In this document: piece after piece, positions 218-64,000 of the stretch
Layout: each line of letters begins with the position of its first letter
Numbering within the stretch: the first letter of the stretch is position 1
Virus record (IMG/VR): IMGVR_UViG_3300047491_001507
Reading direction: 5' to 3' (one strand)
From: a virus
Length of the DNA: 64,000 nt
Made by a program: the position numbers and the translations under genes
The notes under the pieces: generated by a model
What the model saw: the letters and a program-made list of their open reading frames with translations, nothing else
Told to the model about the DNA's origin: nothing
Databases searched by the model: none

Positions 218-688
218 TTACACCCTCTTTACATGTATCATCTTCCTGCCAGAAAATCCCTCAACCGCCTCTCTTGCTAAATTCTCTTTTGTATAGGCAG
301 TGCCTACCACATCCCCAGTGTCTACAATCCACCACTCTGATGGCTCACGGTCCAATTGTGATAATGAATTTATAAATTCTACATCAGATAATTCTTCTTT
401 TAACATTCTGATGTACTCTTCCATATCTTTGATTACTATCACATAATCAACTGTTTTGTTATAACATACATAATACCATGTATGATCACTAGAATAAATC
501 GTTCTGTGATTTAAACAAAAAAGTATACTTTTTAAAGAATCTAATTGTACTGGAGAAGAAAAATCCTCAATAGTAAACGAAATATGGATGGATTTCCCAT
601 CCAATTGTGAATTTAAAAATTGAATGCCTGGAAATTTGCCAAACAAACCCTTAATCTCTTCAACCTTGTCATCAAAAAAATCGTGCAT
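218..688 (-). CDS. hypothetical protein, paralog of 2316..2735 with a shared FPGIQFL motif
   Basis: 156-aa ORF with a GGAGGAAAAG Shine-Dalgarno site before the ATG. The central motif GKFPGIQFLNSQLDGKSIHISFT matches EQFPGIQFLDATLKGTLAEVTFT in the ORF at 2316..2735. Confidence 0.5.
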   Translation of the reverse strand: MHDFFDDKVEEIKGLFGKFPGIQFLNSQLDGKSIHISFTIEDFSSPVQLDSLKSILFCLNHRTIYSSDHTWYYVCYNKTVDYVIVIKDMEEYIRMLKEELSDVEFINSLSQLDREPSEWWIVDTGDVVGTAYTKENLAREAVEGFSGRKMIHVKRV

Positions 689-3657: not shown

Positions 3658-5106
3658 CTACACGATGAAATTTGCTATACTCATGCGTGCGTAAAATTTT
3701 GCCCCTTCACGTAACAACTTCTTTCCATATCTCGTAAGTATGCCTTTGCGGGGACAAAAACTCTCTGGATCTAACACAACTGGGGTCTGTGTTAGGGGTA
3801 CGTATGGGCAGTAGAAGTATCCACTATCCATATAGCTATCACCCTTATAACCCATGAGGATCTGTCCTTGTGGGAACAATGGGTCCTTATATAGTCTCCA
3901 TCTGTTGTTGATCGTTCCAACATATTGGATACCCAAAGAACTCGTGAATGTTTCCGAAGGAGCCGGTGCAAAACCAGCCGTAGCTGTCTCAAATACTGAG
4001 GCAACTTCGGGGGAAGTAACTAGCCAGTTACAACCACCACGGAGGGTTTTACGGTGAACGACGTTGCTAACTTCAACGACTTTCACATAGAGGCTTTCAT
4101 ACTTTTCCTTAATGGTATCACCGAGGGCTGTATTAAAGTCCCAAACGGCTACAGTACCAGCATTGTTGCGAAGATCGGTAAGAACTTCACGGTCGATTTC
4201 AAGGTTAATTTCTTGGGCGAGAACTGCTGTTAGTTCAGCTTCAGCGTCCAAGTTATGTTGGCTACGAAGATCTTGTTGAGCTTCATAGGACCAAACTGCC
4301 TTGAGTTTACGGGTTTTGGCGGCGATTTCTTCTGATTCAACGAGCAAGTTGACTTCAGGAAGATCCTGGTTGCATTCCATGTTATATTCATAGGACATAA
4401 CAACATGATTAGCACCTGGAGCCCCATTCCACGTTAGGGTTAGTTCACCGGTCACAGTATCAATAGATCCGCCAGTACACTTTGGTGCTGGGGTTCCAAT
4501 ATCACTGAAGGTGAAGGTTCCGGCTTCAGCAACTACGAAGGTTTGAACGGCGACTGAGCCATCGTAGATTGTACCAGTAAGAGTACCAGCAAGGACTGGT
4601 GTGTGCTCTAGTGGTGCGAAAACGGAGGTTACATCAGCACCGGCGTCAGTTGAGGAGGTCTCATTCTGAACGAACTGTGATGTGTAATAGATTTCTAGAT
4701 TTCCATCACCGCTAGCTAGCTGTTGCAATGAGGTGGCATCATCTGTGGGGTAGCCGCTGTTTAGGTCAGCACCACGCATAGCACCTTTATTGCTTGAGTA
4801 GCGGAATCGCAAGTAGTAGACCAAGCCGGTTGGGCCGAGCAACGGTTGAACGCTTACGATTTTGTTAGCGATAAGTTGTGGATAGATACGACGAACTAGA
4901 GGAATGCTAATTCTTTTGAATTGAGCAATATCTCCAGTATCGGTCATAGCTTCGTTCATAAGTCTCTGATTTTCCAACATGACAGCGGTAGTGGCTCGTT
5001 CATAACGATCCTTAATACCGTCGAGCAAAGATTTGCCATTGGAAAGAGGCTTAGACCATTTTGTTTCGATTTCTCGTGCTTCGTTTAGAAAGCGTGAATT
5101 TACCAT
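3658..5106 (-). CDS. major capsid protein, HK97-fold by position and size
   Basis: 482 aa. It follows the scaffold and protease genes, has a strong Shine-Dalgarno site (AAGAGGT) and a terminator downstream. Its GC content is higher than that of its neighbours. Confidence 0.7.
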   Translation of the reverse strand: MVNSRFLNEAREIETKWSKPLSNGKSLLDGIKDRYERATTAVMLENQRLMNEAMTDTGDIAQFKRISIPLVRRIYPQLIANKIVSVQPLLGPTGLVYYLRFRYSSNKGAMRGADLNSGYPTDDATSLQQLASGDGNLEIYYTSQFVQNETSSTDAGADVTSVFAPLEHTPVLAGTLTGTIYDGSVAVQTFVVAEAGTFTFSDIGTPAPKCTGGSIDTVTGELTLTWNGAPGANHVVMSYEYNMECNQDLPEVNLLVESEEIAAKTRKLKAVWSYEAQQDLRSQHNLDAEAELTAVLAQEINLEIDREVLTDLRNNAGTVAVWDFNTALGDTIKEKYESLYVKVVEVSNVVHRKTLRGGCNWLVTSPEVASVFETATAGFAPAPSETFTSSLGIQYVGTINNRWRLYKDPLFPQGQILMGYKGDSYMDSGYFYCPYVPLTQTPVVLDPESFCPRKGILTRYGKKLLREGAKFYARMSIANFIV

Positions 5107-8941: not shown

Positions 8942-9693
8942 TGTTAAAATTAGAAAGAGTTAAAAATATTATTTGTGTGATTTCTTTTCACACTTATGGT
9001 TGGATTGAACCATGTTTTGCTGATTTACAAAAATATTGTTACAATAAGCCGCTATTAATGATTGATAACAATCCTTCTTGGGATGATTCATATGAAAGAT
9101 GGTGTACTTATGAATGTCATCCCGCATCTTGCTGGAAACCTCAATGTGAAGACGAAAGAAACTTTATTGAAAGTCAACGAAGTTATATTGAAAGCACTGG
9201 AGGTGCTATTATTCAAACAGAACGTCGTCTTTATCACGGAAATGTCATTGATTGGGCTTTAGAATGGTGCAAAGCGAATAAGTTTCATACTATTACGTTA
9301 ATTGAGCCTGATTGTAATATGACAGGCGATCTTTGGCTGAAGAATTTAGAAGATGCAATACTTAGAGGCTATTGGATGGCTGGAACACATACTACTTTTC
9401 ATAATGCAATTCATCCTTTTGGATCGATTTGGAGAATTGATAAAATTTCAACTAGTTTTCATGCTCAACCGAATCGTGAAATTAGAAACCTTAAAGAATT
9501 TAATAAAGTTTGTGGTCCATACGAAGAACCTTATAATATTTGGAATCGTACCAATTGGGACACTGGACTTCGTGGATGGTATTTAATAGCAAGGCAAAAT
9601 AAGGCAAAATTAGTAAAAGCCCCAGATATCAAACATTACTGGGGCGGTTCATATCGTCAAAGAAAATACACAGAACGATTTGAGAATTTTTAA
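8941..9693 (+). CDS. hypothetical protein, possibly a GT-A-like nucleotide-sugar transferase
   Basis: 250 aa. Its start overlaps the previous stop (TAATG). ICVISFHTYG...LLMIDNNPSWDD and LIEPDCNMTGD loosely resemble the GT-A N-terminal and DxD-like motifs. Confidence 0.3.
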   Translation: MLKLERVKNIICVISFHTYGWIEPCFADLQKYCYNKPLLMIDNNPSWDDSYERWCTYECHPASCWKPQCEDERNFIESQRSYIESTGGAIIQTERRLYHGNVIDWALEWCKANKFHTITLIEPDCNMTGDLWLKNLEDAILRGYWMAGTHTTFHNAIHPFGSIWRIDKISTSFHAQPNREIRNLKEFNKVCGPYEEPYNIWNRTNWDTGLRGWYLIARQNKAKLVKAPDIKHYWGGSYRQRKYTERFENF

Positions 9694-12305
9694 TCTTCTT
9701 CTGATACATCAATCTCTTCTTCGTCCATTTCTTGAGCATAATCTTTAATTTCTAGATCATATTTTTTGACATCATCCTCATTAACATCAGGAATTGTAGA
9801 CATATCATTGCTGCCGTCCTCTTCCTCTTCATCGTCCATATATTTCCTCATGCCCATCGGAGGTGGCCCTCCTGGAGGTGCTCCACCCATTTCTGGTCCA
9901 CCTGGAGGTGCCCCGCCCATATCTGGCCCCATTGGAGGTCCTGCTGCCATAGGCCCGCCCATAGGTCCACCTGGAGGTGCTCCCATAGATCCGCCTAACA
10001 TAGGACTGGGTCCGGTCGGTTCTGTTCCGACTTCGGTTTCATCAGATCCTGGCAATCCTACGCCCAACAGGGTTGGATTCTGAGCAATGATTTGCAGTTT
10101 GAGATCTTCCAGTTTCTGAATCTTAAGTCTGGCCAGCATTTTCTCTGCTTCTTCTTCTGAGTACTTTAACAATTTGATCATAATGTCATAATCGCTCATT
10201 AATTGAGAGCTTTTCAGATTAGAAGCATTAGTTAAACGGTTGGTAACGACTTCGGCTCTGGTGAGTTCTCTCCAATCAGAAGGAGGCGTCATTTTAACTT
10301 GTAAATCTTCGTAAGATTCTTCTGGATAGCCCAATAATTTCAAATGTCGATCACAAATTTCCCATAATGCATCTTCAATATGAGATTGTAGTCGTTCAAT
10401 CATTCTGGCAAATTTGATGTCTTGTGCCGACAGAGCGATTCTGGTGCTTTGTGTGTCTTCATTGTTGAAATAGTTTCTGGGGAAATTTAAAGAAGTAAAT
10501 AGTTTATTGCGGAAATAAATTGTATCATCTACTTCGCCTAAATTACTAGCTCCAGGCAATGTTTCTACTTTCGTATTGGAATTTGGACGAATAGGAATCC
10601 AGTAATCCTCATCTACCGCAGGAGCGTGCCATCGTTCTTCTACAGATGAAGCACCTGGAATTTGACTGCGATTAGGCACTTTCTTTTTCTTGAATTGGTC
10701 CTTCATTCTTTCCATAAATGCTTCTGCTTTAAAGGGAGGCATTTGCTGAACGTCAATATAAAACACACGACGTTCTGGGCTTCTGGAAAGTCTATAGACC
10801 ACCATAGAATCTTCCATTAATCTTAATTGATGGGCTGGACCTCTAGCTGGTTCAATTAAACTTACGCCATACGGATAGAAAGTGCTACGATCATCTCCAA
10901 TACGAATATGTACAATTTGTTCTGGAGCGAATCGGATAGCAGTAGCTTGTTGTAAATCAGCATCTGTAGCTTGAGTGATTTCTACTCGTGCCAGACTTTG
11001 ATAATCTGGACCTTCTTTAGATTGCTGAAATTCGACTAATTTGCCTTTAGTAGTTTCAATACGATACATGCTATCTGGAGGAAGGGGCACCAAGCCAATA
11101 ACTCCATACTTGGGATTTTCTATGTCAATTATAATTTCCCAAAAGAAATCGCCATTGATAAAAGTACGTTTGGTAATATTCCATATTTTCTTTTGGTCAA
11201 AGTTGAGCATATTACGATGGAAAAACAAATATTCTAATTCTTTTTTAATGCCTTCATTTTTTAGATTAATGGTAAATACTCTTCCGTCATCATCACGTTG
11301 GCAATTATGAACTACGCCCCAATCAGTGCAGAAATTTTGGTGTTTTTCAACAGACAGATCAAAGACTTCTCTTTCTTTTCCTTCTAAGACAGCAATAACA
11401 TGTCGTCTGTCGCTTTTAGCACCAAGCCATTTCATTTCTTTGTTGGAAAAGCCTGCTCTTTCGATGCGATCTTGAATGGTATGCAGATCATTGCCTGTCA
11501 TCTTTTGAATTTGGCGAACAGATAAGCCTTCGGCAATCATTTGACAATAGTGATTGACGATTTTTAATTCTTCATTAGTTTTTCCAGTTCTCCATTCATC
11601 AATGAATTGTCGTTCATGAATCCAGCCTTTATCATGGGTCCAAATTCTAGGAAACTGGTTGGTTTTTAGTCCTGTAAGGTCTTGATTGGCAGGAAGGTGA
11701 TAAAAAGGCATTAATTCAGCACCATATTCTAAACTTCCTGCTTCAATCCAACTACCATCTCTGGTTAATACACGATGATCTGGAGTACAAATCAATTCCT
11801 GTCCATTATCAAATAAGACTCTTATTGTTTTGGCGATTTTAGTTAAACGAGGGTTATAGGCCCATGCAAGGGTATAATCTCTTTTATCAAAATCATAGGC
11901 ATATACTAGGAAACGTTCGGTAGGATCTGTGTATTTTTCTTTAAGATGGCGTATGGTTTTAAACCCATGTGGGGTAGCAACTTTAGTTCGTCCTGCAAGA
12001 CAAGCTTCGTCAGCAAATACGGTCATAGCCATTTCAATTTCTGGCATATTTCTTAATCGTTCATATTCTTTATAGCGATTAACACGATTGGTAACAGTAG
12101 ATAAATCAACAAAGTCATTAGTATCTCTTAGTCGTATGGCTCCTTTACCACCGCCCCAAGAACCATCTTGACCAGCACGAATATCAGGAATGGCATCTGT
12201 TTGTGATGTACCGGCACCGACTGGATCTTTTTTGTTTTGTTTGCTAAGAGGATCTTGGGCGAAAGCATATTGAAAAAGTTTGAAAAAATCGTACCAAGCT
12301 GCCAT
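9690..12305 (-). CDS. portal protein (putative) containing a mini-intein
   Basis: It lies directly downstream of the terminase on the same strand and is the size of a portal once the intein is removed. I use the start at MAAWYDFF, which is preceded by AAGGAGT. The C-terminus is Gly/Pro/Met-rich low complexity followed by an acidic tail. Confidence 0.5.
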   Translation of the reverse strand: MAAWYDFFKLFQYAFAQDPLSKQNKKDPVGAGTSQTDAIPDIRAGQDGSWGGGKGAIRLRDTNDFVDLSTVTNRVNRYKEYERLRNMPEIEMAMTVFADEACLAGRTKVATPHGFKTIRHLKEKYTDPTERFLVYAYDFDKRDYTLAWAYNPRLTKIAKTIRVLFDNGQELICTPDHRVLTRDGSWIEAGSLEYGAELMPFYHLPANQDLTGLKTNQFPRIWTHDKGWIHERQFIDEWRTGKTNEELKIVNHYCQMIAEGLSVRQIQKMTGNDLHTIQDRIERAGFSNKEMKWLGAKSDRRHVIAVLEGKEREVFDLSVEKHQNFCTDWGVVHNCQRDDDGRVFTINLKNEGIKKELEYLFFHRNMLNFDQKKIWNITKRTFINGDFFWEIIIDIENPKYGVIGLVPLPPDSMYRIETTKGKLVEFQQSKEGPDYQSLARVEITQATDADLQQATAIRFAPEQIVHIRIGDDRSTFYPYGVSLIEPARGPAHQLRLMEDSMVVYRLSRSPERRVFYIDVQQMPPFKAEAFMERMKDQFKKKKVPNRSQIPGASSVEERWHAPAVDEDYWIPIRPNSNTKVETLPGASNLGEVDDTIYFRNKLFTSLNFPRNYFNNEDTQSTRIALSAQDIKFARMIERLQSHIEDALWEICDRHLKLLGYPEESYEDLQVKMTPPSDWRELTRAEVVTNRLTNASNLKSSQLMSDYDIMIKLLKYSEEEAEKMLARLKIQKLEDLKLQIIAQNPTLLGVGLPGSDETEVGTEPTGPSPMLGGSMGAPPGGPMGGPMAAGPPMGPDMGGAPPGGPEMGGAPPGGPPPMGMRKYMDDEEEEDGSNDMSTIPDVNEDDVKKYDLEIKDYAQEMDEEEIDVSEED
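9840..10020. repeat. imperfect ~33-nt tandem repeats encoding the Gly/Pro/Met-rich portal C-terminus
   Basis: cctggaggtgctccacccat, cctggaggtgccccgcccat and cctggaggtgctcccatag are repeated units. Confidence 0.5.
11304..12002 (-). other. intein of about 233 aa inside the portal gene
   Basis: Block A is CLAGRTKV. Block B is TPDHRVLT, the TxxH motif. Block G is VVHN followed by the +1 Cys (CQRDDDG). The middle region is HTH-like (SVRQIQKMTGNDLHTIQDRIERAG). No LAGLIDADG or HNH motif is present. Confidence 0.6.
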
Positions 12306-12362
12306 ATTAACTCCTTGACGATACTGTATTATAGTATATTTATGAAAAACACAACAATAATC

Positions 12363-12701
12363 ATGACTCACCTTTGTTCAGGTCATGAGCAATTAATAAA
12401 TGAGTTAATGAAAAACCCTCATTTTGATCACTTTGAAACTAAAGGTCTTCATCATTATGATGACTTCCAGATACTATTTAATAATCCGCATCGCAAAAAT
12501 GATAAAAAAGCGGTTTGGGGAACGACTATTTTTCATAATCAAGACCTAACATGTTTTTCATTAATCAAACATTGTAATTTTATTTATTATAGTAAAAAGT
12601 ATGATCCTAGTATGTCCATCAGTGCTTTATCTTATCGATATAGAATTACGGGTATGAAGATTTGGCATAATAGAACAGGCGGTGAATGGTTAGTCGTTTA
12701 G
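12363..12701 (+). CDS. hypothetical protein filling the gap between portal and the upstream gene
   Basis: This is the only ORF that covers the 12306-12689 gap. The start at MTHLCSG has no clear Shine-Dalgarno site. Confidence 0.2.
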   Translation: MTHLCSGHEQLINELMKNPHFDHFETKGLHHYDDFQILFNNPHRKNDKKAVWGTTIFHNQDLTCFSLIKHCNFIYYSKKYDPSMSISALSYRYRITGMKIWHNRTGGEWLVV

Positions 12702-13072: not shown

Positions 13073-14887
13073 TCACCACCCGAACTCCCTCAAGAGATTA
13101 TCATTTGCTCTTCTTTTATAGCCAGATCCAAATAACAAATCATCATCATCAGAACGATTGATATTTTCAAAAAGCTGTAATTCCTCACCTTCTGAAAAAT
13201 CATTGATATTTTTGGCTAATTCTTGTTTGATTTCTTCATAGATTTCTGCTTTAAATACTTCGGTATATTGATTTGTATCTCCTAAAACGGGAGATTGTCG
13301 CATGGCAACATCTCTAGCATATAATGCTAAGCACAATGCCATAATAGCGTCATCATGAAAACCTTTAGTTGCTTCTGCTCGTTTTGTTTGGGAATTCCAG
13401 ATAAAACCTTTCAATTCTTTAACAAACCGCCTGCTACGAATAGCAATGCTTTGGTTGACCAATCTAGTTTGCATAGTTTCTAAGAAAGTAGAACGATTGC
13501 TGCTAGTGGTTTTAATTCCTGGCTTAGAGTTTCTACCTTGAGAACTTTCAAACAGGTTGTCATAATAGAAATCGTGTTGTAGTTTTTCTAGAACTGTTAA
13601 GCCAGCACTTTGACTTTCCACAACGATGATAGCGTTATTATAAGTTTGTCCAACCATAGCAAGAATTTGAGCAAAATGGTGAGGTGGACAGATATTGCTA
13701 TAAAATTCTGCTACTTGTTCACAGGTCACAGCATCAATTACTTCAAAACAGCTATTATCTCCTTCCTCGCCCATGCCTTCAGCAGCATCTACGCCAATAA
13801 TATAATCTCGTCCCTCAATAGGTTCTCGCCAAATATACAAGGCACCACGAATCCAGTTTTCCACATCTGTAATACGTTGCTCTTTTATTTCTCCACGATT
13901 ATTCCATTGAGGAAATAGCATTTTAGTGGGTTCAATTTCTCGTGTAATTATATCTAGATCATTGATAATATCTGGAGGAATATAAGAATCGCCAGCCCCC
14001 AAGAAGTCACGCATAACTTCTTGTAGCCAGCCTTTTTCGCCTAATTGGGCACGAGTTTGCTTGACCCATTCCTCATCGTCGTAATCTGGATGTTCCCAGT
14101 AATCCAATTCAATTACGAAGAAGTCATTTTCGCCTTTTTTCGCTCCCATGAATGTGTCATAGTACCAATTACCCACGCCATTTACCGTGGAGATACAAAT
14201 GCAGTGACCACCAGTACTAATGGTGGGGAACATAGCTTTCCAATGTTTTTCCATTTGTGGAACGTATGCAGCTTCGTCTAGAATAAGATAAGTGATAGAA
14301 CGTCCACGAGCAGCTTCGGGGGTGTAGAAGAATAATTTACAGCCAGTATCGGAGAAGATTTTTTGGTGGTCATTATTTTTCTCCATTTCGGGCTTCATCC
14401 AGCTTGGCAACTCGATTAAAGCACGTTTAGCAACTTCTCCAGCGGCAATAGCTTCACGATCAGACTTAGATAGAACCATAATGGTTTCATCTAATTTAAA
14501 TAAGCATCGCCAAATAGCCCAAATAACAGTAACGGTGGTCAAACCTCCTTGACGGAATTTTGAAAGAATGTTGAATCTTTGATTTTCATATTCTTGACAG
14601 CAGCGACGTTGATACTTATAAGGGATAAAAGGAATTAGACCACGTTTAGGATGAGCGATCTTAATATACTTATGGCAGAAATAGGGGAAGGACATAGCAC
14701 ATTTGAGCAGTTCCCTCTGTCTAGTTTCTGCATCATAGGCTTCAATTTCTTCGAAGCTTTCTAAAGGATCTATCTCTAATTCATACTTATTGAATTCATA
14801 ATATTTTGGATCATATTCATTGAGATAGAAATCTTTTAAATTGGTATATTTTTTCTTCCAATTAGGATCTATTTCTTTAAAAGGCAC
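13073..14887 (-). CDS. terL: terminase large subunit
   Basis: GTG start after TTAAGGAG. ATPase motifs are SKFRQGGLTT (Walker A-like) and ITYLILDEAAYV (Walker B). Nuclease-domain motifs are IIGVDAAEGMGEEGDNS and KGFHDDAIMAL. Confidence 0.8.
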   Translation of the reverse strand: MPFKEIDPNWKKKYTNLKDFYLNEYDPKYYEFNKYELEIDPLESFEEIEAYDAETRQRELLKCAMSFPYFCHKYIKIAHPKRGLIPFIPYKYQRRCCQEYENQRFNILSKFRQGGLTTVTVIWAIWRCLFKLDETIMVLSKSDREAIAAGEVAKRALIELPSWMKPEMEKNNDHQKIFSDTGCKLFFYTPEAARGRSITYLILDEAAYVPQMEKHWKAMFPTISTGGHCICISTVNGVGNWYYDTFMGAKKGENDFFVIELDYWEHPDYDDEEWVKQTRAQLGEKGWLQEVMRDFLGAGDSYIPPDIINDLDIITREIEPTKMLFPQWNNRGEIKEQRITDVENWIRGALYIWREPIEGRDYIIGVDAAEGMGEEGDNSCFEVIDAVTCEQVAEFYSNICPPHHFAQILAMVGQTYNNAIIVVESQSAGLTVLEKLQHDFYYDNLFESSQGRNSKPGIKTTSSNRSTFLETMQTRLVNQSIAIRSRRFVKELKGFIWNSQTKRAEATKGFHDDAIMALCLALYARDVAMRQSPVLGDTNQYTEVFKAEIYEEIKQELAKNINDFSEGEELQLFENINRSDDDDLLFGSGYKRRANDNLLREFGW

Positions 14888-32111: not shown

Positions 32112-32474
32112 ATGCTGAGACTCTATTTATATTTGGCGAGCAGGAAGAAGAAGGGAATCAAATTGATCACAGTGCTACAGGGAACCCAATCTGTTAATAG
32201 CGAATTGACAGATTTGGAAAGTCTAAATCTTAACGCTACATGGTCAAACAAAATTGCTAAAATCATTAACGAACATAAACTGCTCTATTTCCCTATGATT
32301 GAATCGGCAAAAGACTATCAAGAGTTAAAATCTAGATTAGAAAGTCGTGGTTATGATAATATCCCTTCCGGCGTTGTGCCTTTGTTGCATATGCAAGCAT
32401 ATGCAAAAGCTCCTATAGCTGATGTAAGTTCATGTAAAGTTGTGAAAACTATGATTAGAAGAGGAAAACAATGA
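32112..32474 (+). CDS. hypothetical protein
   Basis: An AAGGAA Shine-Dalgarno site precedes the ATG at 32112. Its stop overlaps the start of the next gene (ATGA). Confidence 0.4.
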   Translation: MLRLYLYLASRKKKGIKLITVLQGTQSVNSELTDLESLNLNATWSNKIAKIINEHKLLYFPMIESAKDYQELKSRLESRGYDNIPSGVVPLLHMQAYAKAPIADVSSCKVVKTMIRRGKQ

Positions 32475-56882: not shown

Positions 56883-57479
56883 TTATCTCATGTCCGCAGC
56901 TAATTGTTGCATACTTCCAACTTTTTGTCCAAATTGACGTTGTTGAGATTTGCTCAATTTTGCACGCCAATCTTCATATGATGTCATTTCGTTTGCTTTA
57001 GCTTGCAGCCTTTGTTGTATTTGTTTTTGTATTGTTAATTTGATTTGTTCTAATTCTCCAGGTGAAAAAGTACGAACACTTTTTAAAACCTGTAATAAAA
57101 AAGGCGAGTCTAACTTCTTTGGGGTGACAATACCCCCTCTTACATACATCCTGATTGCATATCGCAAAGGCATATACAATCTGCTTTTTTTAATTGCAGC
57201 CCAGCTAAATCCTGAGTTGCCTCCCCAATAAGTCAATAAACTTTGAATCTCTTGGTATCTAAGATAATGTAAGTTTACTCCACAAACATACTTAGACCAA
57301 ATATTTGTAATTAAAATTACTGGATAAGGGTCATGAATTATATTAGGAATAATCGCCCAACTACGAGGATAATGAAAAGAAATCAACGAACCACGACCTA
57401 TTTCTTTTACACTTGCCCCATATTGATTGGCGGCTATCCTTTGTATAGGATTAAAATCTTCAAATAAACCAGGCATCAA
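56883..57479 (-). CDS. hypothetical protein, a candidate tail assembly chaperone by position
   Basis: 198 aa immediately upstream of the tape measure gene. Confidence 0.25.
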   Translation of the reverse strand: MMPGLFEDFNPIQRIAANQYGASVKEIGRGSLISFHYPRSWAIIPNIIHDPYPVILITNIWSKYVCGVNLHYLRYQEIQSLLTYWGGNSGFSWAAIKKSRLYMPLRYAIRMYVRGGIVTPKKLDSPFLLQVLKSVRTFSPGELEQIKLTIQKQIQQRLQAKANEMTSYEDWRAKLSKSQQRQFGQKVGSMQQLAADMR

Positions 57480-57512
57480 TATTATTTAGTTTAAATTACA
57501 AAAATCTGTATA
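57480..57512 (+). promoter_or_regulatory. putative promoter with an extended -10 (TGtATAAAT)
   Basis: ctgTATAAAT lies 21 nt upstream of the AGGAG Shine-Dalgarno site of the plus-strand gene at 57533. A weak -35 (TTTAAA or TTAGTT) lies upstream. Confidence 0.3.
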
Positions 57513-57532: not shown

Positions 57533-57823
57533 ATGAAGACTTATACTGAATGGCTAAATTCTCAAAACGAAACCATGGGAACATCTCCTGTTGTATCTTT
57601 TTTACAGAAAATCAAACAAACATATGGCCTTTCAGGTCTCAAAATAATGCAAAGCATGCGATTCACTGGATTAGAAGCCGTGGCCAGTCAATTTCATGTT
57701 TCTTTAGAAGAAGCAAAAGCAGCTAAAGAAGCAGGATATGTTAATAGACAGGCAGACAATCATTACACAATAGATCTTGCCAAAATTCTAGGAGCCATGA
57801 AGACCCTTGGACTAATTGCGTGA
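57533..57823 (+). CDS. hypothetical protein, a plus-strand insertion inside the minus-strand tail operon
   Basis: 96 aa with a strong Shine-Dalgarno site (AGGAG). Confidence 0.4.
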   Translation: MKTYTEWLNSQNETMGTSPVVSFLQKIKQTYGLSGLKIMQSMRFTGLEAVASQFHVSLEEAKAAKEAGYVNRQADNHYTIDLAKILGAMKTLGLIA

Positions 57824-58458: not shown

Positions 58459-59745
58459 CTAGCAATTTCTCAATATAATTTCTGAAGTACTAGGAACACA
58501 TCTTTGCACTCTAAGTAAATCACTGGGATTGCCTTGCCATAATGTTTCTTTGAATACAATCCCTTGTAATGAAACGGCAGCTTCTTTCACCAAAGATAAT
58601 GGAGCAGATAAATAAAGCACTCCATCTCGATGGCTTATAAATTCTAGCTCTTCCAATTCCGTTTTTCCTGATTTACTTAAACTATCTGACTCCTTCACAT
58701 AATAAATATCCATATTTGGAATCGGAATTATCGAGCCTTCTTCATTAACAAATGCTTCTCTTTCGTCATTGTCGCTTGTTCGGACTACTAATTTACCATC
58801 CAAAAATGCTGCCTTTAAAGAATTGCCTAAATCCCAGCCCAAATGATGTATTGTTCCATCAGGACTTACAACATTGATAATGAATGCTCGTTCCATAAAA
58901 TGTTCGGCTATTGATTCAATAACAATACGACGACGTAATACGTCTCGTTCTTCAGGACTTCCTCCTTCTAAACGTTCCAATTCGGCATTCTTTAAAAACT
59001 TCTCAGGATCATCTTCTGTTAAATACCAACGGCCAAGATTGACATCCCCCCATTTGGTATTAAATCGAGTAGACATCCGAATTGAATAATCTGTCTCTTC
59101 AAACACTAGATCCTCATTCTGACCACCGCTTCCTACTTGCACTGAACCGGTTAAGGCAGCAATGAATTTTCGATGACAATCGCCCTTTGCTCCACCTAGT
59201 CCAATGAATTTAATGTATATTTCATTAAGCAATGGACTACGTTCCAAAACTGCTGTAATATGATTTACTACAGAGGTTGCGGGATTAGTCCTATCGAAAT
59301 CTTTCTTGATCAACTTGCGAATTTCAGAAGAGGCTTCAAAAATATTTGCATTTTGACGCAAGAAACAAATGTCCAGATTATCTTCTACAAATTTTCGAGG
59401 ATATGGTTCTAATTCATTATCTCGTATATGTAAAATTGCATTGATTAATTTGTTAGGATCACCTTTGATGGATTCCTTGACAAATTTCATCTTCCATGTC
59501 TCAAAATCGTTTGGTCGTTCTTTCTCCTCAGGCATATCTGGAACTTGAGGATCTTGACTTATATCTTCCTGTCCTTGTGGATCTACCGACATATCTATAG
59601 GTCCCATTTCGGACTGTCCCATCGGATTCTGATTTATCCCTGGCTGGCCCATGGGAGGACCGCCCGCTGGTACATCAGGTTGTCCCCCCATTGGAGGGAT
59701 GTCTTGTTCAAACAACCATTGATCGGTATTAATTCGATTACTCAT
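58459..59745 (-). CDS. hypothetical virion protein, a candidate tail sheath by position and size
   Basis: 428 aa. The N-terminus is Pro/Met/Gly-rich low complexity (GGQPDVPAGGPPMGQPGINQNPMGQ). The body is globular. Confidence 0.25.
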   Translation of the reverse strand: MSNRINTDQWLFEQDIPPMGGQPDVPAGGPPMGQPGINQNPMGQSEMGPIDMSVDPQGQEDISQDPQVPDMPEEKERPNDFETWKMKFVKESIKGDPNKLINAILHIRDNELEPYPRKFVEDNLDICFLRQNANIFEASSEIRKLIKKDFDRTNPATSVVNHITAVLERSPLLNEIYIKFIGLGGAKGDCHRKFIAALTGSVQVGSGGQNEDLVFEETDYSIRMSTRFNTKWGDVNLGRWYLTEDDPEKFLKNAELERLEGGSPEERDVLRRRIVIESIAEHFMERAFIINVVSPDGTIHHLGWDLGNSLKAAFLDGKLVVRTSDNDEREAFVNEEGSIIPIPNMDIYYVKESDSLSKSGKTELEELEFISHRDGVLYLSAPLSLVKEAAVSLQGIVFKETLWQGNPSDLLRVQRCVPSTSEIILRNC

Positions 59746-60230
59746 GTTTTACCTTTCTGTGCTAATTTGCTAATGGACTTAATCATTTCACGTTTGCTGC
59801 CTTCGATTACAACTTTGGTATTATGTTGTTGTGCTAAATAACGAGGAAATGTATCTCGATCTTTTAGCTTTAATCGAGTCATCAATTCTGCTATTTTTGT
59901 CATTTTATCAGCGATATCGCTTTTAATTTTCAGCAAATTCACCATTGCTTCTTTGCTAGCAGAACTTGCATCTCCGTCATTAATAACCATTTCTGCGATA
60001 TTTGACAGAAGATCATCTGCATTTACTCGATCTTGTCTGCAATTATTTAGAACTTCATTGTATACATTTACAAGAGTATCATCACTTATAATGCATTCCT
60101 TTTCCTGATCCATAATAGCTGTTGGTGGTTCTACTTTAGGAATTAATTGCCCGATATCAAAATCAGGAAGATTTTCTATTGGACTTGAATTTACAGAAAT
60201 TTCCTCTGTTAATACTTCTTTTTTTGACAT
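59742..60230 (-). CDS. hypothetical protein
   Basis: 162 aa. Its stop overlaps the next gene start. Confidence 0.35.
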   Translation of the reverse strand: MSKKEVLTEEISVNSSPIENLPDFDIGQLIPKVEPPTAIMDQEKECIISDDTLVNVYNEVLNNCRQDRVNADDLLSNIAEMVINDGDASSASKEAMVNLLKIKSDIADKMTKIAELMTRLKLKDRDTFPRYLAQQHNTKVVIEGSKREMIKSISKLAQKGKT

Positions 60231-60294: not shown

Positions 60295-60615
60295 ATGGAT
60301 GAATGTAACATTAGAACTGATGAGCGCATTAAAGTGCTACAAGATAAAAATAGGCAGTTAGAAGAAATTCTTGCTGATATTTCTCAAAATAAACAAAACA
60401 TTTTAGCGAAATTGTTGGTTATTGAAGAAACCACTCATGAATTGCACGAAGATATGAAAGCTCTTGAAAAGAGAATTATTATTCTTGAGTCAGACAACAA
60501 CAAAAACAGAGATCGTTGGAATAACATAATCAGTTTAATTATGCAAATTATCTGGGTGCTTTTGGCTGCTTGGCTACTTAGCAAACTTAATTTACAACCC
60601 CCAATTATTTCATAA
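60295..60615 (+). CDS. small coiled-coil protein with a C-terminal TM helix (holin or spanin-like topology)
   Basis: 106 aa. A heptad-rich N-terminus is followed by IISLIMQIIWVLLAAWLLSKL. A GAGG Shine-Dalgarno site precedes the start. Confidence 0.35.
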   Translation: MDECNIRTDERIKVLQDKNRQLEEILADISQNKQNILAKLLVIEETTHELHEDMKALEKRIIILESDNNKNRDRWNNIISLIMQIIWVLLAAWLLSKLNLQPPIIS

Positions 60616-60650
60616 TTTCACTTGATTTGCATAAATAACTAAGGATTAAA

Positions 60651-62111
60651 TTGGAGAAAATTATGTTCAAAAAGTTTAGTGATTATAAACGCTCTAAAGA
60701 TCAACTCAATGAAGCTTCTGAGACTAACGGCAAAAAATCTGAAAACGATCTAGGATTAGGAGCCAAAATTACTCTAGGAGATAATAATGACTATCTCCCC
60801 TTTGAAGTTAGTGATGATCCTAAAAGTGAATCTTATGGAAAAAACAAAAATTTAGCTCCAATCATCAGAGCCTTTAAAGATGGAGCAAATTGGGGCTGGT
60901 CTCGTGATGATAAAAACGGCAACGATAAGCCTGTTAAAATTGGCAGTAAAAAACTTTACCTTGCTGGTGGAGCCGTTCGCTCTCATCTTAAAGGTGAAAA
61001 ACCAAGAAATATCGAACTTGTTACCAATGCCTCGCCTGATGAAGTGTATCACATTCTGAAACAAAATGATTTTAATTATCTTAAGGACGAAGAGCCAAAA
61101 GCAGCAAAAGGAAAGAATTTCTGGATTACTAAAACAAATAAAAATGGAAGACCCTTCGCTTTTGGCGTACAAGTAAATGAAGATGAATTTGAATTAGAAG
61201 TTTTCCGAAAAACTCCTCGTGGCATCGAGCACGATAGTGATGATCCAGAACCAGGAACACACAAAGACGATGCTTCAGGACGAGACTTCACCATCAATTC
61301 TATGTACATTCTGCTAAGCAATGACAATGGTCCCAATAAAGAACTAGTTGATTTTCATAGTGGAATTCATGATCTTAAAAATAAAAAAGTCACACCTATC
61401 GGCGGAATGAAAGCACTTGACGAACATCCTTCCAGAGTGATTCGCATGATTCGTTTCATGCATGCTGATGGTGATCCCAAAAAATTAACAGACGATGAAA
61501 AAGAATCCATCAAAAATGCTTCTAAAAATCTTAAGAAAGTAGACAAGAAATACATGATGAAAGAGTTCAGAAAGGGCTTTAAAGGCGACACCCGAAAATA
61601 CCTCAGTCTAGCTTCTGATCTAGGTATTACTGACAGCCTTTTCCCTGGAAAATTCTTTGATTCTAAATTGCCTAAGGAACTTTCTGAAATTGAAGATGCA
61701 GATATGCCTTTGGCTTATGCTTTACGGCTCAATAATCCTGATCATTTACGGGGATTAGATCTTGACAATTTAAATAAAATTCTGGTACTCATTAAATTGC
61801 TTAATTTGAAGTCTTTGGATCAGAACAATCTTGATGATCTTACCAATTGTTACAATCAAAGCGATATTTCTACCAGAAAGCTACAAGATTGGGCTCTTAA
61901 AATTGGAAATGTCGATCCTAAATTAGTTCAAGGCTTTATTGCACATTGTCGATCACCTAGAGTTAAAGTCTCTTTCAGTGATCAGGGCAAAGATAAAGTT
62001 CATGACGATTTTGCTGATCTTATTGATCCCTTTAATGGGGAATTAGATGATGAAAGAGCTAAAAGTCGTCGTAAAGAAATTGAATATCGAAATTTCCTCA
62101 GCAAACTATAA
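60651..62111 (+). CDS. CCA-adding/poly(A) polymerase-family nucleotidyltransferase with substituted catalytic carboxylates
   Basis: The head-domain motif KLYLAGGAVRSHLKGEKPRNIELVTNASPDEVYHIL corresponds to GGaVRDxLLg...DiDlat, but NIE replaces DxD. GRDFTINSMYI matches the RRDFTINAla motif. A GGAG Shine-Dalgarno site precedes the start. Confidence 0.55.
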   Translation: MEKIMFKKFSDYKRSKDQLNEASETNGKKSENDLGLGAKITLGDNNDYLPFEVSDDPKSESYGKNKNLAPIIRAFKDGANWGWSRDDKNGNDKPVKIGSKKLYLAGGAVRSHLKGEKPRNIELVTNASPDEVYHILKQNDFNYLKDEEPKAAKGKNFWITKTNKNGRPFAFGVQVNEDEFELEVFRKTPRGIEHDSDDPEPGTHKDDASGRDFTINSMYILLSNDNGPNKELVDFHSGIHDLKNKKVTPIGGMKALDEHPSRVIRMIRFMHADGDPKKLTDDEKESIKNASKNLKKVDKKYMMKEFRKGFKGDTRKYLSLASDLGITDSLFPGKFFDSKLPKELSEIEDADMPLAYALRLNNPDHLRGLDLDNLNKILVLIKLLNLKSLDQNNLDDLTNCYNQSDISTRKLQDWALKIGNVDPKLVQGFIAHCRSPRVKVSFSDQGKDKVHDDFADLIDPFNGELDDERAKSRRKEIEYRNFLSKL

Positions 62112-62194
62112 TTTCAATCTTGCTTAACATTTTTCTATTTGTTACATTGAAAAATGATCGGCACTGTTATATATTATAGAAGCGAGGTTATAAA

Positions 62195-62896
62195 ATGCGT
62201 AAAGCTGCACTTTATGTCCATGGCCGTGTCGTGATCGCTGACAGTCACATGCTCGCTTATCAACAGCTTACTCATCATGAAAAAGAATCGCATATTACCA
62301 GTGGCGTCTTCGATTCAAGTACCAAAGAATTTGAAAGCGATTTGCCTGAAGAACATTTCTATAACATTGAATGTGTTCTAATTCGTCATGGTCATGTGAC
62401 TGATTCTAATGAGCCTGATGCTCCCCTTTCTCCAGTCGGCATTCAAAAAGTCAATGAACTCTGCAAAACCTTGAAGAATTTTGATTTCAAAGATTTTACT
62501 GGCATTACCAGTCCTTTATTGAGGTGTCTTCAAACCTCTCTAATTATTTATGAAAAATTGCACATAGATTTTAAGACTCAAGCTTCCCTTATGGAATTAC
62601 CTTGGTTTTTAAATCAAAAAAAACAATATCGATTGCAAAATCATAAACTTAAATTTCCCCAATTTTCCTGGGAATCTAATGATGACTTTATTATAAATTA
62701 TGAATCTAATGAGGATTTTCTGGAAAGAACAAAACTGGCCTTGCAAAATTTTCAATCAAAAGTTATAGTTATTACTCATTACGGTTTTATTGTTAATGCT
62801 ATTCGATTGGCTCTTTGTAAAGAAAAAGTGGTTTCTGATATTGCTCCAGCCAGTCTTACTTATATTAACAACCAAGATCTCATGTATCAAGGATAA
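62195..62896 (+). CDS. histidine phosphatase superfamily (phosphoglycerate-mutase-like) protein
   Basis: ECVLIRHGHVTD carries the RHG catalytic motif. A GAGGT Shine-Dalgarno site precedes the start. Confidence 0.5.
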   Translation: MRKAALYVHGRVVIADSHMLAYQQLTHHEKESHITSGVFDSSTKEFESDLPEEHFYNIECVLIRHGHVTDSNEPDAPLSPVGIQKVNELCKTLKNFDFKDFTGITSPLLRCLQTSLIIYEKLHIDFKTQASLMELPWFLNQKKQYRLQNHKLKFPQFSWESNDDFIINYESNEDFLERTKLALQNFQSKVIVITHYGFIVNAIRLALCKEKVVSDIAPASLTYINNQDLMYQG

Positions 62897-62899
62897 TTT

Positions 62900-63106
62900 A
62901 TGGAATTGGAATTTTGTACCAATCAACAACTTATCGATGAATTGGTAAACCGCTCTACTTTTGCTGGAATTATTATTTACTCTGAAGATGAAAACAGAGA
63001 TATTTTACAAAATCATGATCAATTCGATTTAGTAACCAAAACTTCCCCGCAAGAAACTATTGATGTACTAGAAGCAGCTATTCAAGAGTTGCAGCCTCTT
63101 ATTTAA
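62900..63106 (+). CDS. small acidic hypothetical protein
   Basis: 68-aa ORF three nucleotides after the previous stop. Confidence 0.3.
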   Translation: MELEFCTNQQLIDELVNRSTFAGIIIYSEDENRDILQNHDQFDLVTKTSPQETIDVLEAAIQELQPLI

Positions 63107-64000
63107 CGCTTTCACTTAAAAAATAAACAAATGATTCATATGTCTTGTTTAATTCAGAAAGTATTTCAATATCATTAGGAGTCTTCTGCTCTTCTCCAAA
63201 TTCTATTACTAACGAAAAACAACCGTGACGATAATACCAATCAGCTTCCGTGCCAAATATTGGATATCCATAATTGTTCCGTAATTGTAGTTTCTTGTAG
63301 CCACTTAATTCAGTCATCTTGCTTAATATTTTGCGGTATTTAGCATCGTCTGGAGTTCTGTCTGATGTGTCTCCATATGGGTATAAAAATACTTGACCAT
63401 TACTATGCCCCGATATGGCTGCTGCTGGCTTGATTTTTAGAAAAAATTCCTTCAGTCGTTCTATTGGAATACATGAATCTCTTTCTGGATAACGGTATTC
63501 AGAAAAATCTCGGTTTGGATCTACTCCATCTACATACCGACTTTCTTGATAACTATCTGGACTCACCACTGGTATAAAATATAAATCCCGATTGTCCAAT
63601 AGCTCTTTTATCTCTGGTCTAGATTGATATTCCACTAACAAACGACCTATGTAATCCATTATCATAGCTGTCGAATATAATTCATTGCCATGAATGGTTC
63701 CTGTCGCTAATATTACTGGCTGCATTCTTTTGCTTGGATTAATCCTAAAATACACCAAATCTCTATTGCCAGAAGACTTACCGTATGTACCTATTTCGGT
63801 ATTTTCGGGACATTCTTTGTGCCATTCATTTAATTGAACGATTAATTGATGATAGTTCAAAATACTAGGTGACGGATTGTTTATTCTATATGGAATTGCT
63901 TCTTTTTCTTCTAATAACAAAGAAAATCCGCCACTTTCTATTAAATTATTTCGTTTTCCTGCTAAAATTAAGAGTAATACAAATATTGTTATATTAACTA
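63099..64000 (-). CDS. M14-family zinc carboxypeptidase, N-terminal part beyond the window
   Basis: ILATGTIHGNELYS carries the HxxE zinc site. ISGHSNGQVFLYPYG matches the second M14 His block. The reading frame stays open to position 64000 and there encodes a hydrophobic signal or anchor (NITIFVLLLILAG). Confidence 0.6.
   Translation of the reverse strand, partial: VNITIFVLLLILAGKRNNLIESGGFSLLLEEKEAIPYRINNPSPSILNYHQLIVQLNEWHKECPENTEIGTYGKSSGNRDLVYFRINPSKRMQPVILATGTIHGNELYSTAMIMDYIGRLLVEYQSRPEIKELLDNRDLYFIPVVSPDSYQESRYVDGVDPNRDFSEYRYPERDSCIPIERLKEFFLKIKPAAAISGHSNGQVFLYPYGDTSDRTPDDAKYRKILSKMTELSGYKKLQLRNNYGYPIFGTEADWYYRHGCFSLVIEFGEEQKTPNDIEILSELNKTYESFVYFLSESVK

Follow-up and report, generated by a model that had tools for sequence, protein, structure and literature searches.

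A Phage Family of Class II tRNA Nucleotidyltransferase Homologues Retained despite Recurrent Loss of Catalytic Residues

The Locus

The window analysed here is one strand of 64,000 nt from the IMG/VR virus record IMGVR_UViG_3300047491_001507, with a GC content of about 35%. Its genes identify the source as a T4-like myovirus, and contigs of 250–460 kb carry proteins identical or related to the one discussed below. This protein is a homologue of the class II tRNA nucleotidyltransferases (NTases), a group that includes the CCA-adding enzymes, and its catalytic motifs are degenerate. A gene for a histidine phosphatase of branch 1 follows on the same strand, 83 bp further on. The coordinates of these and the other features are given in Table 1.

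At the start of the NTase gene, a Shine–Dalgarno sequence, GGAG, lies 7 nt 5' of the ATG at 60663 and overlaps a TTG at 60651. The Joint Genome Institute (JGI) gene call (P0001, 482 aa) and the N-termini of the family, of the form MxxKxFxEYK, both match this ATG. As the three lines agree, the ATG is probably the real start, and the protein has probably 482 aa rather than the 486 aa of the open reading frame (ORF) reported in the original prediction. Residue numbers are nevertheless those of the 486-aa ORF throughout.

The PolyA_pol head domain (PF01743) is found at residues 102–247 with E=5e-17 (62.8 bits against a cutoff of 23 bits), and PHROG 2244, ‘tRNA nucleotidyltransferase’, matches with E=1e-27. 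The head–neck–body–tail architecture of class II enzymes is complete. The scores for the curated NCBIfam equivalogs stay far under their cutoffs, at 54 of 438.8 bits for TIGR02692 and 47.9 of 290 for NF009814. For bacterial poly(A) polymerase I (PcnB; 3aql), the score of 71.6 bits is far under the TIGR01942 cutoff of 305.65, and the catalytic DxD of that enzyme is absent here. The best TMq in BFVD is 0.59. Among deposited phage genomes, the best tblastn match has 32% identity and belongs to the related group described below as clade B, and megablast against the cultured-phage collection gave no match. A second, intact NTase was not found in the 64-kb window. Rfam gave no matches, and no tRNA gene or other RNA element lies near the NTase gene of the window or near its counterparts at 10 related loci.

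Loss of the Catalytic Residues

The pairwise alignment with human TRNT1 (1ou5/4x4w) runs without gaps over the query stretch LAGGAVRSHLKGEKPRNIELVTNA, and places N120-I-E122 opposite the human D-I-D. The differences are not confined to this motif. The class II CCA-adding enzymes of human (TRNT1, 1ou5), B. stearothermophilus (1miv) and A. thaliana (9kma) carry DxD and RRD, whereas the window protein has NxE and a Gly at the first Arg, its motif B being GRD. In the same way, the Asp residues of GGxVRD and EDxxR in these enzymes are replaced by Ser (S111) and His. The window NTase further differs from them in a conserved N-terminal extension of about 95 aa and in an insertion within the head domain.

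An offset catalytic Asp was considered and rejected, as there is no D between residues 112 and 129 and the spacing from GGxVR to DxD is the same in every sequence. Since the TRNT1 alignment has no gaps and no Asp lies nearby, the substitutions are regarded as real and not as an artefact of alignment. The original prediction had named a class II homologue with NIE at the DxD and Ser at the Asp of GGxVRD, and had proposed a structure-based alignment that would separate missing carboxylates from offset ones. The domain matches and the alignment bear out the homology and both substitutions, and the offset is refuted. The list of altered motifs was incomplete, though, as it held neither the GRD of motif B nor the EHPSR of motif D. 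The N-terminal extension, which it had also noticed, is real: the Pfam domain begins only at residue 102, and the AlphaFold2 (AF2) model reaches a predicted local distance difference test (pLDDT) score of 94–97 over residues 41–80.

The aspartates of the DxD are catalytically essential, as an AxA variant is inactive, and in randomised-library selections for A- or CCA-addition, no substitution was accepted at D165 and R168 of the EDxxR motif (PMC11784652). Both the DxD and the Asp of EDxxR being indispensable in that work, the window NTase fails both requirements.

A Large Family of Degenerate Relatives

The homologues of the window NTase at E<=1e-3 number 833. The best 120 of these serve as the sample of its family, here called family A, to which the family A counts refer. 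All 120 are full-length, share about 50% identity and come from metagenomic sources only, the cultured-phage collection containing none of them. In this sample, the first position of the DxD is Asn in 105 members, Asp in 11, His in three and Gly in one, while the second is Glu in 113, Gln in six and Asp in one; DxE occurs in 11 of the 120. The first Arg of RRD is replaced by Gly (88) or Ser (30) and is found in none. The acidic position that aligns to the human FEI is occupied by Glu in 54, Thr in 20, Asp in 19 and Ser in 19. The Asp of EDxxR is retained in 104 of the 120 and lost in the subclade of the window. Thus, what had been noted as an oddity of one protein is present in the window but not private to it; it is a family-wide and evolutionarily recurrent state. 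NxE together with [G/S]RD is regarded as fixed in at least 120 full-length relatives, which belong to huge phages of the T4-like kind.

It was also observed that the first DxD position toggles between Asn, Asp and His in relatives that are 81–85% identical, for instance between P0054 (DxE) and P0061 (NxE), and that the second toggles between Glu and Gln among close relatives. Such toggling of the first position is unlike the behaviour of an essential metal ligand. The subclade of the window holds 16 sequences in which the Asp of GGxVRD has become Ser or Ala, and 12 of the 16 have also lost the Asp of EDxxR (K[YHRF]xxR or EHxxR). This subclade represents a second stage in the decay of the nucleotide pocket, and the window copy shows the most degenerate motif state seen, or one of the most degenerate.

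The rest of the protein is well kept. Residues G106, G107, R110, D207, R211, D212, N216 and R268 are invariant in family A. In all, 57 columns are invariant over the sample, and the window NTase retains every one of them; it is, therefore, not a pseudogene. It also retains 162 of the 173 columns (94%) that are at least 90% conserved, deviating at 11, the family median being 4. The pattern of conservation indicates purifying selection, which acts most strongly in the head domain and in the N-terminal extension.

Parallel Losses in Megaphage Enzymes

The best match among deposited phage genomes is to the megaphage LR756511 (595 kb), which has an NTase locus in the same gene order. Genes of 447 and 147 aa run divergently there, followed by a 129-aa coiled-coil gene and a 508-aa NTase, the motifs of which are all canonical (GGAVRD...KDYDL, FEIATFR, ARRDFTAN, EEDQLRALR). 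A search with this NTase yielded the group called clade B (P0121–P0240), from contigs of up to 669 kb; 116 full-length members were analysed. The clade B enzymes, such as P0121 of LR756511 and the intermediates P0251 and P0254, resemble the window NTase in syntenic position, length and head insertion, at about 30% identity. Most of them differ from it in keeping DxD, RRD and EDxxR, and those with intact motifs are presumably active, while a minority lost the DxD independently, in parallel to the family of the window.

The DxD is retained in 88 of the 116, and the other 28 read NxD, DxN, GxD, NxN, HxD or GxE. These 28 losses form about 10 separate groups, as counted from unweighted pair group method with arithmetic mean (UPGMA) clustering and nearest-neighbour identities, and many have an intact nearest relative at 75–86% identity. 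The unaligned motif strings show no insertion or deletion, as in P0129 (PKDYDLATD), P0130 (PRDYNLVTD), P0132 (PKNYDLATD) and P0131 (PKGYDLVTD). Loss of the DxD tracks the loss of the first Arg of RRD (81/7 vs 5/23; Fisher p=1e-13, kinship ignored), and is accompanied by changes at several head-domain positions.

The degenerate forms P0195 (NxD) and P0130 (DxN) occupy the same syntenic slot as the intact ones, and are, therefore, orthologous replacements and not extra paralogues. That catalysis has been lost repeatedly while the protein was kept implies a function under selection for which nucleotidyl transfer is dispensable. Judged by these motifs, the maintained pseudoenzyme family is large, with recurrent and parallel catalytic losses in its sister clade B.

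The N-Terminal Extension

In family A, the extension (residues 36–101) is better conserved than any other part of the protein. Its residues D55, D56, G63, K64, N65, R73, F75, G78, N80, W81, G82, W83, G90 and K93 are invariant, and its mean column conservation is 0.76 in family A against 0.55 in intact clade B. The clade B extension is homologous to that of the window NTase but lacks the motifs YGKNKN and NWGWS, which are specific to the degenerate family A. In the intermediates P0251 and P0254, an extension resembling that of family A (ITLGDGNDYPPF...NLAPIIRAFKDG) occurs beside unaltered DxD, RRD and EDxxR motifs.

An exhaustive HMMER search with the extension alone against 1.84 billion representatives found 13 proteins. 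Every match that is not a fragment has the NTase architecture, bar one repeat protein. This protein, P0247, is a giant of 3,539 aa, in which the query matches 11 stretches through an SSWGWDDDI-like motif resembling NWGWSRDD; the match is probably convergent or incidental and not homologous.

The conserved acidic residues of the extension raise the question of whether the protein may still be a nucleotidyltransferase of altered specificity, in which Asn120 and Glu122 hold the metals, perhaps with D55, D56 and E60 folding into the cleft. Such non-canonical catalysis would agree with the extension being the most conserved region, with D55 and D56 invariant. It would also agree with N120 and E122 being conserved and not drifting, with the persistence of GGxVR and RDFTxN, with EDxxR in most of family A and with the 11 members that have DxE. 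Variants of the form [DE]x[DE] are tolerated in other members of the Pol-beta superfamily. Several observations oppose this proposal, however. The toggling at both DxD positions, a motif B without its first Arg throughout the 120 members and the variable third acidic position do not fit a working site, and the same losses recur in clade B, where the extension motifs of family A are missing. The window NTase in addition lacks the substitution-intolerant Asp of EDxxR (PMC11784652). As for the DD pair, P0254 has it together with an unaltered DxD, and so do P0219, P0221, P0222 and P0226, the nearest members of clade B. The extension and its DD pair thus predate the catalytic loss and are not compensatory, which makes D55 and D56 unlikely as relocated catalytic carboxylates. 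On balance, a retained nucleotidyltransferase activity is considered quite unlikely.

The Histidine Phosphatase and Its ClpP Partner

The gene after the NTase does encode a histidine phosphatase, as had been predicted. His_Phos_1 (PF00300) matches with E=8e-16 (58.7 bits against a cutoff of 21.7), and the core residues R64, H65, R110, H195 and E170 are intact in the window and invariant in 19 sequences from both clades. The RH(G), the second Arg, the second His and the Glu are common to the window protein and branch 1 of the superfamily (PhoE/CobC/dPGM/SixA/Sts-like). It differs from these in a conserved, lineage-specific N-terminal extension of about 55 aa, in reaching no curated family cutoff (the best partial matches being CobC, dPGM and Sts-like) and in its coupling to ClpP in relatives. 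No homologues of it were found outside this phage lineage. It is probably a separate and active enzyme.

Marker proteins were mapped over 16 loci (L001–L016), with a tblastn map covering 13 of them. Among the mapped loci, the phosphatase adjoins the NTase in the window only. It lies 2.5–6.4 kb away in four distinct loci of family A (L001, L002, L007 and L010), and none is found within 10 kb of the NTase in L008 and L012. What is conserved is its pairing with ClpP: in L001, L002 and L016, and likewise in the distant megaphage locus L014, the two reading frames share 23 nt, and in L007 one directly adjoins the other. A small ORF, p68, follows the pair in relatives, and a Clp_N-domain gene lies just 5' of it in L002. 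These arrangements suggest that the phosphatase and ClpP form a conserved unit, the role of which may be protein dephosphorylation coupled to proteolysis. ClpP was not found anywhere in the 64-kb window; there, p68 directly abuts the phosphatase and thus marks the place of the missing ClpP.

It had been proposed that the two neighbours form a tRNA 3'-end repair module, in which CCA is restored by the NTase once the phosphatase has stripped a 3' or 2',3' phosphate. Their orientation and short spacing would suit such a module, many relatives from family A and from clade B carry both families in one genomic island, and the HAD_SAK_1 and cRec genes described in the next section give the island of relatives an RNA-repair flavour. 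Against it, the indispensable residues of the NTase are missing and the pairing is not conserved: adjacency is limited to the window, L008 and L012 have no phosphatase near the NTase, and the overlap with ClpP occurs in four divergent lineages. A sigma-70-like site matching at 10 of 12 positions and a separate ribosome-binding site precede the phosphatase gene. The partial matches, all under the family cutoffs, are to CobC, dPGM and Sts-like proteins, and the healing of RNA ends is not known for any histidine phosphatase. The functional repair module is, therefore, very unlikely, and the linkage in relatives on which it depended is absent. The other option of the original prediction, an inactive NTase that binds, fits best, as discussed below. 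Judged by gene order, the histidine phosphatase is an accidental neighbour of the NTase, and its conserved partner is ClpP.

Probable Decay of an RNA-Repair Island

The conserved order of the region is p428 and p162 on the minus strand, p106 and the NTase on the plus strand, a variable stretch, HAD_SAK_1, a second variable stretch, the histidine phosphatase–ClpP–p68 group and, further on, an M14 carboxypeptidase on the minus strand. The gene that most often comes after the NTase is HAD_SAK_1 (PF10307, ‘HAD domain family 1 in Swiss Army Knife RNA repair proteins’; 44–58 bits against a cutoff of 25.6), in nine of 11 distinct related loci. The gap between the two is 3 bp in L016, about 40 bp in L004 and 79 bp in L012, and in L015 a cRec-domain gene comes after HAD_SAK_1. 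In the account of Iyer et al. (PMC7824862), jumbo-phage RNA repair typically uses the standalone Swiss-army-knife HAD as its linear 3'-phosphatase, and cRec is a predicted domain for processing cyclic phosphates. Because HAD_SAK_1 and cRec follow the NTase in relatives, the ancestral island plausibly held a group of genes for the repair of tRNA/RNA 3' ends that included an active CCA-adding enzyme. The Swiss-army-knife HAD phosphatase thus fits the earlier idea of a phosphatase working with a CCA enzyme, though its superfamily differs from that of the histidine phosphatase. It was also noticed that the HAD_SAK_1 end-healing set persists beside degenerate NTases, which raises the thought of the dead NTase as an RNA-recognition subunit.

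In the 64-kb window, tblastn finds no HAD_SAK_1, and the window is credited with none of the recognised types of RNA-repair phosphatase (HAD_SAK_1, PNK-HAD, 2H, cRec). The adjacency of NTase and phosphatase there is explained by gene loss from the variable island, in which HAD_SAK_1 and ClpP, among other genes between the two, disappeared. The window appears to be the far end of the decay of this island, with the NTase dead and the HAD gone. One may ask whether the NTase itself is only a decaying remnant without function, given its extreme motif state, its 11 deviations against a median of 4 and the loss of the two other genes. Yet its ORF of 482 aa is intact, all 57 invariant and 94% of the near-invariant residues are kept, the AF2 model is confident, and the family counts 833 homologues, the best 120 of which are all full-length at about 50% identity. 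A functionless remnant is, therefore, hardly to be believed.

Proposed Function

It is proposed, with moderate confidence, that the NTase is a maintained pseudoenzyme, derived from a CCA-adding repair enzyme of huge phages, which binds rather than catalyses. The ancestor would have added CCA as part of an RNA-repair island in huge phages; the chemistry of nucleotidyl transfer would then have been lost and the class II fold retained. The fold and the remnants of the pocket (GGxVR, RDFTxN and R262/R265/R268) may bind an RNA 3' end, such as the acceptor end of tRNA, or a nucleotide, without turnover. The extension motifs YGKNKN and NWGWS may supply a new interaction surface, and the protein might act as a shield, a sensor or an adaptor.

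Some observations weigh against this proposal. The old site is not drifting freely, as N120 is 88% and E122 94% conserved in family A, and it could hold one metal or ligand and support some chemistry. The net charge of body and tail averages -3.8 in family A against +3.0 in intact clade B, about 7 less, while that of the window NTase is +3; the lower charge weakens tRNA as the ligand but does not exclude it. Further, with D111 and D259 lost in the subclade of the window, the recognition of nucleotide bases may be gone.

A role outside RNA must also be weighed, in which the NTase fold is a mere scaffold for an assembly, structural or membrane-associated factor acting with p106. The product of p106, a coiled coil with a C-terminal hydrophobic segment, is possibly tail-anchored, and the only family signal reported for it is a weak DUF1664 match in L015. 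The arrangement of p428/p162 and p106–NTase is present from L001 to L016, including the degenerate clade B forms, so that this order is invariant across clades at about 30% NTase identity. Moreover, the gene borders the structural module: upstream of it lie genes for the gp2-like end protector, for large tail-like proteins and for capsid, portal and terminase. The less basic body and tail of family A would suit such a role, and the repeated loss of catalysis with the protein kept implies in any case a role independent of it. On the other hand, G106, G107, R110, R211, D212, N216 and R268 of the pocket are invariant, beyond the needs of a scaffold. These phages also keep much of their gene order in general, so that a shared position says little by itself about an interaction. 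A role outside RNA is thus judged unlikely, while it stays the strongest competitor of the binding pseudoenzyme.

Relation to Known Systems

Phage CCA-adding enzymes have been treated as tRNA-repair or translation-support enzymes (PMC7824862, PMC7162821). If the motifs are read correctly, a large uncultured branch of them would be incapable of that chemistry, with the loss recurrent and the protein kept, and the annotation as tRNA repair would be wrong for hundreds of metagenomic proteins. The pattern suggests that the class II NTase scaffold has a function apart from catalysis. In a limited full-text literature search, no description was found either of such a function or of phage class II NTases with degenerate catalytic motifs. 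The sequences also offer a natural series from polymerase to pseudoenzyme, passing from intact motifs through a single Asp-to-Asn change and NxE/GRD to the loss of EDxxR.

Several immune systems attack tRNA tails, among them Cas12a3 (PMC12851939), toxSAS FaRel2 (PMC11559606) and MenT (PMC11541572). In view of these, a shielding or decoy role against such immunity is conceivable for the NTase; should it indeed bind tRNA ends, it would represent a novel type of counter-measure against them. In its full form, the scenario would be that a huge T4-like phage lineage made the CCA enzyme into a dead binder of the tRNA 3' end, once at the root of the family (hundreds of members) and about 10 times in megaphages. 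The Asp-to-Asn change would create a substrate trap, serving as a cap or shield for acceptor ends or as a decoy, against cleavage by Cas12a3, pyrophosphorylation by toxSAS and extension by MenT/AbiEii, the YGKNKN/NWGWS extension being the grip or a partner interface. This scenario is speculative, and its truth as a whole is rather improbable.

Flanking Genes and Other Features

Table 1. Features of the window and of related loci. Positions are those of the window unless a related locus (L) is named.
Feature	Position	Strand	Remarks
Major head protein	3658-5106		gp23-like
Portal	9690-12371		gp20-like
Large terminase	13073-14887		
Large ORF, 1,044 aa	42724-45858		structural block
Large ORF, 784 aa	47847-50201	-	structural block
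Large ORF, 1,353 aa	52785-56846		structural block
DNA end protector	56883-57479		gp2-like
p428	58459-59745	-	with p162, divergent; flanks p106-NTase; border of structural-gene block
p162	59742-60230	-	with p428, divergent; flanks p106-NTase; border of structural-gene block
p106	60295..60615	+	coiled coil with C-terminal hydrophobic segment; directly 5' of NTase in all loci examined, both clades
Class II tRNA-nucleotidyltransferase homologue, catalytically degenerate	60663..62111	+	482 aa from ATG; 486-aa ORF from TTG 60651
NTase layout (approximate, residues)	extension 1-100; head 101-250; neck/body 251-400; tail 401-486		
N-terminal extension, residues 36-101	60756..60953	+	most conserved part; alignment of best 120 sequences
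Motif A metal-ligand position, R-N-I-E-L	61002..61016	+	canonical x-D-x-D-x; TRNT1 alignment
Motif D position, D-E-H-P-S-R	61419..61436	+	canonical x-E-D-x-x-R; base-templating Asp to His
Histidine phosphatase, branch 1	62195..62896	+	His_Phos_1
p68	62900..63106	+	small conserved ORF directly after histidine phosphatase
M14 zinc carboxypeptidase	63099-63920	-	Pfam E=3e-32
HAD_SAK_1 in relatives	L016 9599-10210; L004 11501-12112; L012 11579-12214; L015 9941-10938		
Histidine phosphatase-ClpP pairs in relatives	L001 15798-17127; L002 12020-13430; L016 12479-13697; L014 9266-10481		23-nt overlap

The product of p428 has an N-terminus rich in Pro, Gly and Gln and is 56–75% identical across relatives, which is above the conservation of the NTase. 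No informative match to p428, p162 or p106 was found in Pfam, PHROG, NCBIfam, PADLOC or PDB. The three large ORFs of the structural block have no PHROG match and are presumably tail, baseplate or fibre proteins of an uncultured lineage. In the window and in L007, L008 and L012, the variable island ends with the M14 zinc carboxypeptidase; such an enzyme is unusual in a phage.

A scan for sigma-70 promoters and terminators gave nothing informative except the promoter-like site 5' of the histidine phosphatase. The sequence CATAAATA at 60630–60637, 33 nt 5' of the NTase start, matches the T4 late-promoter consensus TATAAATA at seven of eight positions, and the same CATAAATA (7/8) occurs around 60256, 26 nt 5' of p162. 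Exact copies of TATAAATA are found once on the plus strand, at 57509, upstream of the ORF at 57533, and twice on the minus strand, at 32131 and 1958. Over the whole window, sites like TATAAATA lie upstream of 12 genes against about five expected, a weak enrichment.

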